A stretch of DNA of 64,000 nt. It comes from Escherichia coli (GTDB lineage Bacteria > Pseudomonadota > Gammaproteobacteria > Enterobacterales > Enterobacteriaceae). Positions 54,460 to 64,000 of this stretch are shown here, one piece after another. Numbering within the stretch: the stretch's first letter is position 1; every line of letters starts with the position of its first letter. The notes under the pieces were generated by a model that saw only the letters and a program-made list of their open reading frames with translations, was not told the origin of the DNA and searched no databases. The stretch is taken from NCBI RefSeq assembly GCF_003334335.1, contig NZ_QOWQ01000020.1. The stretch is one strand, 5' to 3'. The translations under genes and the position numbers were made by a program.

Positions 54460-55200
54460 TCATAGGTTGCCGGTGTAGTGCCAGCGTAAATAACGCAGCA
54501 AACGAAGCTGACGCTTAATGCGGCTCGGCTGCGAAAGCAGGCGGTAGAGCCACTCCAGCCCCAGCGTTTGCCAGATTTTCGGTGCGCGTTTTACGTGACC
54601 GGTGAAAACATCGTAAGTCCCGCCAACGCCCATATACAGCGCATCTGGATGTACCAGACGGCAGTCGCGCATGATGATCTCCTGCTTTGGCGATCCCATC
54701 GCAACGGTGACGATTTGCGCACCGCTGGCATGAATGCGTTCAAACAGCGCCTGACGCTGCTCGGGTTTAAAATAACCATCCTGACTGCCAACGATATTCA
54801 CATTCCACTGGTTGCGCAGTTTAGCTTCAGTTTGCGCCAGCACTTCAGGTTTACCGCCCACAAGAAATACCGGCGTCCCTTCTTTGCCTGCGCGCGCCAT
54901 CAGCTCTTCCCAGAGATCGGCACCGGCAACGCGGGAAACCTGCGCCTGCGGGTACTTTTTGCGTACTGAACGTACAACGCTGATGCCATCCGCATATTTA
55001 AATTCGGCAGCGTTAATTAACTCCCTGACCTCGGCGTTATCTTCAATAGTCAGCATTTTTTCAGCATTAATGGCAACCAGCGTTCCCTGCTTAAGCTGCC
55101 CGTCAGCAAACAGATAATCGAGGGCGTGCTGCATATCACGCCAACCAATCAACTGTAAGCCACGCAGCGTATAGGTTGGTGCCGTGGTGTTGTTATTCAT
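54460..55200 (-). CDS. wecG: UDP-ManNAcA transferase (ECA lipid II synthesis) WecG
   Basis: 246-aa ORF, last gene of the wec cluster. Confidence 0.88.
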
Positions 55201-55202
55201 TG

Positions 55203-56555
55203 TTATCCTTCAACCTGCGTCCGGAGCGATGATTTTGTACGTTTATGAATGAGTCCGGCGCTTTCAAAAAGCCAGTACAACAGTTTTGCGATCATCAGAC
55301 ATGCGCCGAAGACCACGATAAAAAAGACCACGCGTGAGACAAACGAATCCAGCCCTTCACGCGCCAGCACGATCATATTGAAGATCGCCCCAAAGCAGAA
55401 ACTGTGCAATATCGCAGCTTTATAGCGATTAGGCTCGCGGTTGCCCAGCTCATACAGCCAGTCGAACCATTTGATGATCAGACCAACCACGATCGCCCCG
55501 AGCGGGATGAACAACGCGCCGCCCATCACCACCAGTGAGCCTATAAGCGTAGGCGAGATCGCCAGTCCGGAGTGGTTATTCAGCACTTCCCAGGTAAAGT
55601 AGTTGGCTGAGTTCAGCACCATACTCGGGCGACCCGGCCACAGCCAGGAAGGGATAAAGACATAGAAATCGCGGACAATTGGAGCCAGGCCCTGGAAGTC
55701 GATGTTGTCGTAGTTCTGCAACAGCAACGCCAGATTCTCCCACGGCGAGAAGGTGTCGCGAGTGAGATAGAGAAACGTATAGAACGCTTCATCGCCGCTC
55801 ACATTCATTCCATAGCGTTTTAGTGCCAGCCAGAACATGCCAACAATCCCCAGCACGCCCGCCGCCGCCAGCATCCACAACGAAATCCAGCCGCGAATAA
55901 TGCCAATAAACAGGAAGATAGCGAATGCGATGATGATATTGGCGCGAGTGCCGCCGACAATCATATAAGTCAGCAAGCCAAAGGCGACCGTGCTGACGAG
56001 GAAAAACAGCCACGCTTTGCTGTCCTGGCGCAGAAAGTAGACCACCAGCATCGCCGGGATGAAAAAGTAAAAGAAGCGTTTTAACGCCACGCCGGAGACT
56101 TCACTGGAAAAGATCTGACTGTAGGAGTTAAGCCGGAACAGCAAAAAGCCGTTGTGCATGAAGAAGATGCCGACGCTTACCAGCGCGATACCCATCAGGA
56201 TCACCCACGTAAGATTGGTCTCCACGCGGTTCATGGTAAACAGCGGACGGCGCGGTACATCAGCAACGCGTTTGCGTAGGCGGGTTTTGTAGGTGACATA
56301 GTAAACCGCGTAGAAGCAGCCCGCAGAAAGCAACGCCTGCAACAAGATTTCTGGCGGCGCGACACCAACATCAAAGCGAAATACCAGCACGCTGGTCAGC
56401 GGGAAGCCGAAGAAAAAGGTGAGCAAAAACAGCAATGAAAAGAAGACATTGAAGTTAAAGCGCACACGGCGAAACTCAAACCAGGTCAGCGTGGCAATAA
56501 ACAGCGTGCAGAGCAGCCAGACAACAAACAGGCCACTGAATTGCAGCAGACTCAT
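55203..56555 (-). CDS. wzyE: ECA polymerase WzyE
   Basis: 450-aa polytopic membrane ORF. Confidence 0.88.
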
Positions 56556-57631
56556 GCGACCTCCCCGGCGGCAATCGCCAACGCCCGCTGCCAGCCTTGT
56601 AGATAGTTAGGGCTAAAGAAGGCAATGGTGTTTTTATCCACCGACGCCAACTGGCGCTGCGCTTCACGCACAATATCCTCGTTGAGATCGTCGGTAGTAA
56701 ACAGCACCGGCAAATGTTGTTCCGTCATATCCTGCCAGAACGGATTTTCCCGGTTAAGCACACAAGGAATGCCCGCCTGAATCAGTAAGCACAGCGTACC
56801 AATGCCCTGCTGGCGGGCAAAAATAAAGTAACCAAGATCGCACTGACGAAGTAGCGCCAGATAGGCGTCAAATTCCAGTTTTTCGCTCAGAATTTGTAGA
56901 TTTTCTTCGCTGAATAACTCCAGCCCCGCCTGACGAACTTCCTCAATGTACGCTTCGTTATTAGGCGGATATCCCATCGGCACCACCACTTTTACCGTAT
57001 CGCCAAATTGCTGATGAACGGCGCGCAAGGCAGCAATATGCTCATTGCTGCGGTCGCCGGAGTTCCCCACCAGAATGGTCATTTTCCCTTCACGTTGCCG
57101 ATCGTTCGCCATCGTATTGAGCGAAGGGTCCATCCGCGTCGGGAAGAACAGCAGTTCGCCCCGCACCTTTGGGTGCGTTTTGGCAAAAAAGCTCAAATCG
57201 CCGCGGGTGGCAAATACACAGCCGACTCGCTTTTGCGCCAGGCGACGTAGTGGGTAAAAAAGCTTATATCTCAAGCCACTGGAAAGCTCATACAGGTCTG
57301 CCCCCCAGATATGCCAGAAAAACTGGCTGGGCTTAATGCCACCACTCAGCAGAGCCAGCCACAGTGTGGGATTGAACTGACCGTGGAAGAAAAAACGCTG
57401 CTGACGGTTAGCTTTTGCTTTCGCGATGACCGCTTCCGCCAGCGATTTTTTCCCAGGGAAAAATTGCACAGAAAGCGCCGGACAGCTATCACTTAAGCCG
57501 TCGTCCTTGCCAACAACCATAAACTCGCGCGCGTGCTCGCTCGTCGCGGCCAGCGCGTCATTGAAAAACCGCAAAACGGTTCGGTTATGGTGAGGGATAT
57601 CCGATCCCAGTACGTGAATCAGTACAGTCAT
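56552..57631 (-). CDS. wecF: TDP-Fuc4NAc:lipid II transferase WecF
   Basis: 359-aa ORF; 4-nt overlaps with wzyE and wzxE. Confidence 0.88.
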
Positions 57632-61548: not shown

Positions 61549-61566
61549 GTTTGCCTCCGCTGAAAA

Positions 61567-62634
61567 TTAGCCTTTCAGACCTAAACGCTCGCCCTGATAG
61601 CTGCCGTCCTGCACCTGCTTCCACCAGCTTTCATTCGCCAGATACCACTGAACCGTTTTACGCATTCCACTTTCAAAGGTTTCCTGCGGCAGCCAGCCAA
61701 GTTCACGGGCAATTTTCGAAGCATCAATGGCATAACGCAGATCATGCCCCGGACGGTCAGCGACAAAGGTGATCAGGTCACGATAGTGCGCCACGCCGTG
61801 CGGCTTGTTCGGAGCCAGTTCTTCCAGCAGCTCGCAAATGGTTTCCACAACATCGAGATTCTTACGCTCGTTGTGACCACCAATATTATAGGTTTCACCG
61901 ACTTTCCCGGTGGTCGCCACGCAATACAGCGCGCGGGCGTGATCTTCCACATACAGCCAGTCACGGATTTGCTGCCCGTTGCCATATACCGGCAGCGATT
62001 TACCCGCCAGCGCGTTGAGGATCATCAGCGGGATCAGTTTTTCCGGAAAGTGGTAAGGGCCGTAGTTATTCGAGCAGTTGGTGATAAGCGTCGGCAGACC
62101 ATAGGTCCGCAGCCAGGCGCGCACCAGATGGTCGCTGCTGGCTTTTGACGCGGAATAAGGGCTGCTCGGCGCATACGGCGTGGTTTCGGTGAAGAAATCA
62201 TCCGTCGAGTGCAGGTCACCATATACTTCGTCAGTGGAGATATGATGAAAACGGAACGCTGATTTTTTATCTTCCGTCAGCGCATTCCAGTAAGCCCGCG
62301 CCGCTTCAAGCAATGTATAAGTCCCGACAATGTTGGTTTCAATAAACGCTGCCGGGCCGTCAATAGAACGGTCAACATGGCTTTCGGCTGCCAGATGCAT
62401 GACACAGTCTGGCTGATGCTCAGTGAATACGCGTGCCAGTTCTGCCCGATCGCAGATATCAACTTTCTCAAAGGCAAAGCGCTCGCTTTGCGCGACCGGT
62501 GCCAGCGACATCAGGTTTCCGGCGTAGGTCAGCTTATCGACCACTACCACCGCGTCGCTCGTTTCGTTGATGATATAACGCACCAGCGCCGAGCCAATAA
62601 ACCCGGCACCACCTGTTATCAGAATTTTTCTCAT
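61567..62634 (-). CDS. rffG: dTDP-glucose 4,6-dehydratase 2
   Basis: 355-aa [27 protein letters not shown]. Confidence 0.92.
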
Positions 62635-63896
62635 CAGCGCCAGACTCCTTTGGCATCGACGACATACTGCTGATGGACATTGTCGCCATTGATAACTTTG
62701 AACTGACTATGATCGACCAGCATCACCAGCACGTCTGCCGTTGCCAGCGCCTCGTCAAGCTGCGCCAGAGTACAAAGCCCGGTCAGTTTTTTCGGCAACT
62801 GGTGGATGTTAGGCTCAACAACCAGAGTTTCGCCGCTATGCCACTGGGCGATCAGTTCAGCGATTTCCATCGCCGGGCTTTCGCGCAGGTCATCAATATT
62901 CGGTTTAAACGCCAGACCAAAGCAGGCGATTTTCAGTTCACTGGCGCGTTTATCGGTAGCCGCCAGGCAATCAGCCACCGCCGCTTTCACCTGATCGATA
63001 ACCCAGAACGGTTTGTGATCGTTCACTTCGCGCGCGGTACGGATAAGCCGCGCCTGCTGGGGGTTCTGTGCCACGATAAACCACGGATCAACAGCAATGC
63101 AGTGACCGCCCACGCCAGGGCCAGGCTGAAGAATATTAACGCGAGGGTGACGATTCGCCAGGCGAATCAGTTCCCAGACGTTAATCCCCTGATCGGCACA
63201 AATCAGCGACAATTCATTAGCAAAAGCGATATTCACATCGCGGAAGCTGTTTTCGGTGAGCTTACACATTTCCGCCGTCCGCGAGTTAGTGACGACACAC
63301 TCACCTTCGAGGAAAATTTTGTACAGTTCGCTGGCGCGGGCCGAACAAACCGGCGTCATACCACCAATCACGCGATCGTTTTTAATCAGCTCGACCATTA
63401 CCTGTCCTGGTAACACGCGTTCCGGGCAGTAAGCAATGTTGACGTCCGCCTGCTCGCCCACCTGCTGCGGGAAAGTGAGATCCGGACGCATCTCTGCTAA
63501 CCATTCTGCCATCTTCTCGGTTGACCCCACCGGCGAGGTGGATTCAAGGATCACCAGCGCGCCTTTTTTCAGCACTGGCGCAATGGAGCGAGCAGCCGAT
63601 TCAACGTAGGTCATATCTGGCTCATGATCGCCCTTAAACGGCGTGGGTACAGCAATCAGCCAGGCATCCGCTTCAACTGGCGTCGTGCTCGCTCGTAAAA
63701 AACCGCCTTCTACGGCAGTTTTTACTACACTCGCCAAATCAGGTTCGACGATATGGATTTCGCCACGATTGATGGTATCAACCGCATGTTGGTTGATATC
63801 GACACCAATTACCTGTTTTTGCCGTGAGGCAAACGCTGCTGCCGTTGGCAGCCCGATATAACCCAGTCCGATAACAGAAATGGTCGCAAAACTCAT
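62634..63896 (-). CDS. wecC: UDP-N-acetyl-D-mannosamine dehydrogenase WecC
   Basis: 420-aa [26 protein letters not shown] with Rossmann fold. Confidence 0.92.
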
Positions 63897-64000
63897 AGTG
63901 ATATCCGATTATTTTTTAACGCTTCCAGAATGCGAGAGCATGCCTGACCATCACCATACGGGTTATGGGCGCGGCTCATAGCTTGATATTCGTTTTCGTC
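63893..64000 (-). CDS. wecB: UDP-N-acetylglucosamine 2-epimerase WecB, 3' end only (truncated by the window edge)
   Basis: Minus-strand frame reads ...[35 protein letters not shown]-stop, with TGA overlapping the wecC ATG (ATGA); not in the ORF track because it is partial. Confidence 0.75.

Follow-up and report, generated by a model that had tools for sequence, protein, structure and literature searches.

In the Escherichia coli contig NZ_QOWQ01000020.1 (assembly GCF_003334335.1), a stretch of 64,000 nt, hereafter referred to as the window, ends within the wec operon for enterobacterial common antigen (ECA), in which the reading frame of the acetyltransferase WecD opens 23 nt inside the preceding gene rffH. 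The best explanation for this arrangement, to which we assign a probability of about 93%, is a standard wec operon whose WecD protein is translated from the annotated, overlapping GTG codon by Shine-Dalgarno initiation that is helped by the translation of rffH. A preliminary description of this DNA had correctly placed the opening of the 224-aa WecD frame 23 nt inside rffH (overlap 60667-60689, the same in E. coli MG1655), but had treated the initiation codon as a real uncertainty; the comparative and structural evidence all favours the annotated GTG. The annotated WecD start stands, and no re-annotation is needed. According to the proposed mechanism, ten genes would form a single transcription unit on the minus strand, which starts at a promoter upstream of wecA and ends at a hairpin after wecG, and WecD would be translated from the GTG at position 60689, 23 nt before the rffH stop codon, via a GGAG motif within rffH. 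Direct Shine-Dalgarno-driven initiation would be the main route to WecD; ribosomes translating rffH probably keep the wecD start site unfolded, and ribosomes terminating 23 nt downstream may re-initiate at the wecD GTG.

Reading on from an in-frame stop codon 42 nt upstream of it, the GTG at 60689 (MG1655 position 3974467) is the first ATG, GTG or TTG to be met; the E. coli stretch between the two contains no start-type codon, and the next in-frame candidates only follow from codon 24 (GTG). The RefSeq WecD start in MG1655 (YP_026256.2, version.2) and in E. coli PEC1009 is likewise the overlapping GTG, and the crystallised 224-aa protein begins at this codon as well. A genome scan yielded 80 Enterobacteriaceae species loci with a WecD identity of 64-94%, 46 of which carry rffH sequence upstream of wecD and 34 of which do not. 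Of the 46 rffH-carrying loci, 45 have GTG as the homologous WecD start codon and one has ATG, and the overlap measures 23 nt in every locus. Codon 1 is also the sole in-frame start-type codon that is common to 46/46 loci, the next best being codon 44 (31/46). An in-frame ATG at -27 (window 60716-60714) was rejected as the WecD start: it is present in only 18 of the 46 loci, where a synonymous TAT-G for Tyr-Gly of RffH creates it, and the E. coli sequence at this position is ACG. The same ATG explains the WecD annotations of 233/234 aa in some Salmonella and Klebsiella records (e.g., P0044).

The bases of rffH that form the start signals of wecD are strongly conserved. In the Shine-Dalgarno sequence, the G at -11, the G at -10 and the A at -9 are found in 46/46 loci and the G at -8 in 40/46; the first G of GGAG (position -11) is a wobble base of rffH and is nevertheless invariant. 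The rffH arginine codon that provides the GT of the GTG (codon 287) is CGT in 45/45 loci with Arg at this position, six Arg codons being possible. By comparison, conservation averages 0.665 over the 96 wobble sites in the 286 nt of rffH that lie farther upstream; among these sites, only those in two Trp TGG codons are invariant. These patterns indicate that selection acts on the wecD GTG and on its Shine-Dalgarno bases. Right after the rffH stop codon, the codon periodicity of WecD begins, with codon positions 1, 2 and 3 conserved at 0.86, 0.88 and 0.61, respectively, and in an alignment of 12 proteins the WecD residues L10, W12, E13, F16 and F17 are invariant. The start of the WecD frame must therefore precede codon 9, a region in which E. 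coli offers no start codon but the GTG.

The protein itself also points to the full frame. WecD matches the model NF008212 with 357.6 bits (cut-off 219), its residues 1-224 lying on profile positions 1-231 of 232, and the structures PDB 2FS5 and 2FT0 can be aligned over residues 2-224. Residues 3-69 form, together with residues 219-224, an ordered N-terminal partial-GNAT domain, which is followed by a C-terminal GNAT domain (PMC4964394). The crystallised WecD (PDB 2FS5, 2FT0; Hung et al. 2006, as cited in PMC4964394) is the same 224-aa protein with the same partial-GNAT and GNAT domains, but differs in carrying Val at residue 79 (Ala in the window), Gly at residue 120 (Ser in the window) and an 11-residue tag. 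The acetyl-CoA P-loop A169-G170-R171-G172-A173-G174 and the catalytic residue Y208 (ALKRYIQSG), both of which are named in PMC4964394, are present in the WecD of the window, and A169, G170, R171, G172, G174 and Y208 are invariant in a 12-species alignment. The WecD and RffH proteins are identical to those of strain K-12 (WecD corresponds to MG1655 b3790), for whose WecD the dTDP-Fuc4N acetyltransferase activity is known (PMC7439462); the same activity is predicted for the WecD of the window.

The start position can also be followed where the overlap is missing. The 34 of 80 species loci without rffH upstream of wecD comprise 32 that lack both rffG and rffH and two (L016, L042) that lack rffH only; tblastn gave no rffH match in 33 loci, which reflects a real absence of the gene and not a technical failure. 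An ATG, GTG or TTG codon is located at exactly the homologous WecD codon in 24 of these 34 loci, 13 of them having ATG, and W12 is typically residue 12 of the predicted WecD protein. Within E. coli, rffG-rffH is lacking from the ECA cluster in 117/5426 complete genomes. In these 117 genomes, the wecC stop codon is followed by an unrelated 40-nt spacer (TACTGATTACCGTGAATGACTGTTTTGAGGGAGTCACACA), which contains GAGGGAG, and then by an ATG at WecD codon 1. RefSeq again annotates a 224-aa rffC in the E. coli loci without rffGH, whose flanks are about 98% identical to MG1655; in the example of E. coli Ec-U4-19 (NZ_CM192135.1; locus L083, positions 2960-3002), the equivalent of window 60690-62633 is absent. 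The carriers include porcine O139:H1 and enterotoxigenic E. coli (ETEC) isolates as well as human clinical isolates. Judged from these alignments, the WecD start codon turns to ATG without the overlap, but stays in place.

Several points weigh against initiation at the overlapping GTG with the help of rffH translation. No wecD/rffC entry is contained in the TRAINSPOTTER, TetRP and Salmonella riboproteogenomics data, and a direct in vivo measurement of the start site or of an N-terminal peptide was not found. Among the non-annotated initiation signals listed in the in vitro INRI-seq data, the only entry near wecD is a marginal, out-of-frame CTG at -13, which has a ribosome-protected fragment (RPF) value of 6.6, was detected in 2/5 replicates and is not present in Ribo-RET. 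Termination-reinitiation coupling over a backward distance of 23 nt is something that we infer from the sequence arrangement. Finally, the mRNA at the rffH/wecD junction has no unusual structure and folds no better than shuffled sequences (z = 0.30), which gives no sign of structure-dependent coupling. The INRI-seq CTG maps to MG1655 position 3974453, i.e., window position about 60702, in the rffH frame, and its signal probably represents noise or results from a footprint offset at the WecD start. A regulatory RNA or RNA structure at the rffH/wecD junction was also considered and is ruled out by the same z value together with an Rfam scan of positions 50000-64000, which returned no match except four tRNAs.

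The preliminary description had named a WecD start downstream of rffH as the finding that would refute its observation. WecD would then start at an in-frame codon such as the GTG at codon 24 (60620-60618) or the GTG at codon 44, and the 224-aa frame would be over-extended. This idea gains some ground from the negative search for direct start-site data, from the presence of GTG at codon 44 in 30/46 species loci and from the older TIGRFAM model TIGR02382 (wecD_rffC), which starts only at WecD residue 44 (window 60561-60558 region), NF008212 starting from residue 1. However, every comparative test that was run contradicts it: codons 24 and 44 are start-type codons in just 20 and 31 of the 46 loci, respectively, compared with 46/46 for codon 1, residues 10-22 include invariant positions and show the coding periodicity of the WecD frame, the synonymous bases that form the GTG and its Shine-Dalgarno sequence are invariant, and codon 1 is found as ATG in loci without rffH. 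Moreover, residues 3-69 are ordered in the crystal (PMC4964394). We therefore consider a downstream start extremely improbable. The residue-44 start of TIGR02382 probably reflects earlier, shorter gene models, and this model, or the older short gene models, is the likely origin of the doubt about the WecD start.

It is also conceivable that the overlapping GTG and an internal codon are both used, which would result in a long and a short WecD proteoform. The E. coli frame does contain in-frame internal GTG codons at positions 24 and 44, and other E. coli genes are known to use internal start sites (10.1101/520783). Conservation across species, though, is found for none of the internal candidates, and initiation at codon 24 or 44 would yield a product that is missing a portion of the N-terminal domain, a domain that packs against residues 219-224 (PMC4964394); in addition, the extra INRI-seq peak near wecD lies upstream and out of frame, not inside the gene. 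A second proteoform is thus regarded as very unlikely, and initiation at the overlapping GTG remains the preferred route to WecD.

What the overlap does for RffH can be read from the family to which this protein belongs. RffH (PDB 1MC3) matches TIGR01207 with 534.3 bits (cut-off 360.65) over residues 2-286, and its homology to RmlA profiles and crystal structures extends to residue 286/287 and breaks off precisely at the beginning of the overlap. Since the RmlA homology ends at this point, the overlapped residues RARPRQY represent a family-variable tail of RffH. The TGA stop codon of rffH is formed by the conserved WecD codons Ile7-Glu8 (ATT GAR). In the overlap, the wobble positions of WecD, which are first positions of rffH codons, are frozen, and they relax to 0.37-0.54 right after the rffH stop codon. 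The sequence of the overlap is dictated mainly by the WecD N-terminus.

The overlap might accordingly be a historical by-product with no coupling role, in which a variable RffH tail reads on to the first out-of-frame stop codon (TGA) and WecD is produced by independent Shine-Dalgarno initiation only. The end of the RmlA-family homology at residue 286/287, the stop codon made by conserved WecD codons and the ordinary RNA structure at the junction are all consistent with this view, as is the fact that WecD works with quite different upstream contexts in the loci without rffH. On the other hand, after every observed loss of rffG-rffH, the junction from wecC to wecD is either very tight or bridged by an open relic ORF (open reading frame), which hints at selection for uninterrupted translation. 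An overlap without function is a possibility to be kept in mind, yet it is not the outcome that we expect, and it bears on the expression linkage of the two genes only; the start codon is unchanged by it. Gene pairs coupled by ATGA or TGATG overlaps offer a parallel to the preferred reading, i.e., to Shine-Dalgarno initiation helped by rffH translation: the window likewise has same-strand overlaps in which the downstream ribosome-binding site is located inside the upstream gene, and four of its junctions are of the 1- or 4-nt type. What sets rffH/wecD apart from these pairs is the greater length of the overlap (23 nt) and a conserved Shine-Dalgarno sequence of its own. For re-initiation near a stop codon, a scanning model was reportedly put forward by Adhin and van Duin in 1990.

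The losses of rffG-rffH are side results of modest interest for ECA biology and operon evolution, the two genes being absent from many ECA clusters of Enterobacteriaceae. Loss of rffG-rffH or of rffH (34/80 loci, among L006-L082) was observed in some members of Citrobacter, Raoultella, Klebsiella, Enterobacter, Lelliottia, Leclercia, Silvania, Kosakonia and Yokenella. These clusters share the flanking genes wecC and wecD-wecE-wzxE-wecF and the position of the WecD start with the window, which has the full rffG-rffH pair; in the clusters without rffGH, however, wecC is joined to wecD directly, by a short spacer or by a relic mini-ORF. Of the 32 loci without rffG and rffH, 15 have a wecC/wecD overlap of 4 or 1 nt, seven a gap of 9-17 nt, three a gap of 33-39 nt and a further seven a gap of 78 nt. 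The differing types of wecC/wecD junction imply several independent losses. Such loss is frequent and has recurred, in keeping with the known redundancy of rffG-rffH with RmlA/RmlB (PMC7439462), and the loci without rffGH presumably rely on the RmlA/RmlB proteins (rmlA/rmlB) of the O-antigen cluster for dTDP-glucose.

The gaps of 78, 33 and 39 nt are deletion scars, in which the rffG start codon, overlapping the wecC stop codon, is fused in frame to the 3' end of rffH. The 78-nt gap is found in seven loci of the Klebsiella/Raoultella clade (L026, L030, L031, L034, L037, L046 and L056), where it lies before locus position 3001 (1691 in L056), the 33-nt gap in Pseudocitrobacter faecalis (L038) and the 39-nt gap in an uncultured Klebsiella (L027). 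The relic ORFs are open over 34, 19 and 19 codons for the 78-, 33- and 39-nt scars, respectively, and end 23 nt inside wecD (17 nt in L027). All seven 78-nt scars are open and free of indels, some having diverged to about 50% identity, and the other two frames contain stop codons in 3 and 5 of the 7. These observations point to translation that is maintained without a break into wecD: the scars may be under selection for continuous translation, and the relic mini-ORFs may act as a translational bridge. It could be speculated further that rffG-rffH is a dispensable cassette, which was lost many times in Enterobacteriaceae and is missing in about 2% of the complete E. coli genomes, each loss being filtered by selection for uninterrupted wecC-to-wecD translation through a direct or nearly direct fusion or through a relic mini-ORF that stays open solely as a bridge, and that the conserved 23-nt overlap is a link of a selected ribosome relay and did not arise neutrally; we regard this wider scenario as tentative and rather unlikely.

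The history of the scars differs from that of their surroundings. In Raoultella planticola, which carries the scar (L034), the flanks are 97% identical to those of Raoultella ornithinolytica with intact rffGH (L033), but the scar is only about 50% identical to the 3' end of rffH in the latter. The same pattern of scar and flanks (wecC and wecD-wecE) was found for Klebsiella michiganensis compared with Klebsiella grimontii (L056 and L039). The flanks track the species relationships and the scars do not; alleles with and without rffGH may thus predate the species, or recombination may have exchanged them. Two further loci deviate from the common patterns: in Citrobacter koseri NCTC10786 (L008, about 2900-2920), rffH is apparently frameshifted, which may be an assembly error, and in Kluyvera genomosp. 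3 (L042, 2805-3000), rffG and approximately the first 30 codons of rffH are kept, and some 100 nt of unrelated sequence separate this remnant from the WecD GTG.

The region that carries the overlap comprises the ten distal genes of the wec operon in its standard E. coli form and is as such ordinary and already known (Table 1). For all nine complete proteins, the score against the respective NCBIfam equivalog model exceeds the curated cut-off. The genes lie on one strand in the order wecB-wecC-rffG-rffH-wecD-wecE-wzxE-wecF-wzyE-wecG and adjoin thrP (yifK) and the tRNA genes argX-hisR-leuT-proM, the region being collinear with MG1655 and PEC1009. The DNA of PEC1009 is 100% identical to the 10-kb stretch, and RefSeq annotates exactly the same genes there; used as a query, the 10-kb stretch has a match in 5426/5426 complete E. 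coli genomes. Compared with the wec/rff operon of MG1655 (b3784-b3794: wecA wzzE wecB wecC rffG rffH rffC wecE wzxE wecF wzyE rffM), the gene order, the gene lengths and all junctions including the 23-nt rffH/rffC overlap are the same; the cluster of the window differs by three bases and one amino acid and is cut inside wecB.

Table 1. Genes, signals and junctions of the wec region in the window. Coordinates were obtained by ORF listing and junction extraction on the minus strand; junctions are given in the order of transcription.
Feature	Position	Strand	Description	Basis
wecG (rffM)	54460..55200	-	UDP-ManNAcA transferase, 246 aa	NF002980, 444 bits (cut-off 323)
wzyE	55203..56555	-	ECA polymerase, 450 aa	NF002820, 868 bits (cut-off 510)
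wecF (rffT)	56552..57631	-	Fuc4NAc transferase, 359 aa	NF002752, 858 bits (cut-off 754)
wzxE	57628..58878	-	lipid III flippase, 416 aa	NF011679, 809 bits (cut-off 325)
wecE (rffA)	58880..60010	-	dTDP-4-amino-4,6-dideoxygalactose transaminase, 376 aa	NF008687, 712 bits (cut-off 375)
wecD (rffC)	60015..60689	-	dTDP-fucosamine acetyltransferase, 224 aa, GTG start 60689-60687	NF008212, PDB 2FS5/2FT0
rffH (RmlA-ECA; PGAP name rfbA)	60667..61548	-	glucose-1-phosphate thymidylyltransferase, 293 aa	TIGR01207, PDB 1MC3
rffG (RmlB-ECA)	61567..62634	-	dTDP-glucose 4,6-dehydratase, 355 aa	NF007582, 832 bits (cut-off 698)
wecC	62634..63896	-	UDP-ManNAc dehydrogenase, 420 aa	NF008286, 860 bits (cut-off 459)
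wecB, 3' end	63893..64000	-	last 35 codons (...NNRISL*), runs off the window end	translation
Dual-coding overlap	60667..60689	-	23 nt; RffH residues 287-293 (RARPRQY) and stop, WecD residues 1-8 (fM-PVRASIE)	sequence
Shine-Dalgarno sequence of wecD	60697..60700	-	GGAG, in rffH Leu-Glu codons, 7 nt upstream of GTG	conservation
Terminator-like hairpin	54418..54441	-	after wecG stop, before thrP; 10-bp stem, 4-nt loop	folding
Junction wecB>wecC			4-nt overlap (ATGA)	
Junction wecC>rffG			1-nt overlap (TGATG)	
Junction rffG>rffH			18-nt gap	
Junction rffH>wecD			23-nt overlap	
Junction wecD>wecE			4-nt gap	
Junction wecE>wzxE			1-nt gap	
Junction wzxE>wecF			4-nt overlap (ATGA)	
Junction wecF>wzyE			4-nt overlap (ATGA)	
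Junction wzyE>wecG			2-nt gap	

Series of 1- and 4-nt overlaps are normal in bacterial operons. The ten consecutive minus-strand genes with gaps of 1-18 nt or overlaps, as reported in the preliminary description, were reproduced exactly by the ORF listing and junction extraction, and the short overlaps that it had listed at wecC/wecB, wecF/wzyE and wzxE/wecF each turned out to be a 4-nt ATGA. Its view that nothing suggests an altered or mosaic ECA locus also agrees with the data: the alignment with MG1655 contains 5 mismatches in 13,845 nt (99.96% identity), three of the five lying within the cluster, and the GC content is even across the cluster genes (0.52-0.56), by which a mosaic or imported locus is ruled out. 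That the cluster is complete holds for the organism, as wzzE and wecA are present in the identical PEC1009, but not for the window, which ends at position 64000 inside wecB. Outside the window, consequently, are wzzE, wecA and the promoter that precedes wecA; wecB, wzzE and wecA follow in PEC1009 and MG1655. The location of the operon promoter upstream of wecA is described in PMC12212991, and the roles of the wec pathway are reviewed in PMC7439462 and PMC12212991. A consensus scan for internal promoters gave 4 matches compared with 7.9 expected and thus no enrichment.

The hairpin after wecG is likely to mark the end of the operon. Its fold has a free energy of -18.5 kcal/mol (z = -2.87), with 3/200 shuffled sequences being equally stable, and a T-run is located about 8 nt downstream (approximately 54409-54404). 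The consensus terminator scan missed this hairpin owing to the distance between its stem and the T-run. Further along the minus strand, downstream of thrP, four tRNA genes (window 52348-52781) correspond to argX-hisR-leuT-proM of MG1655. The sole amino-acid difference from MG1655 in the cluster is R356G in WecF (window 56566, codon 356), which is located four residues from the C-terminus and adjoins the wecF/wzyE overlap.

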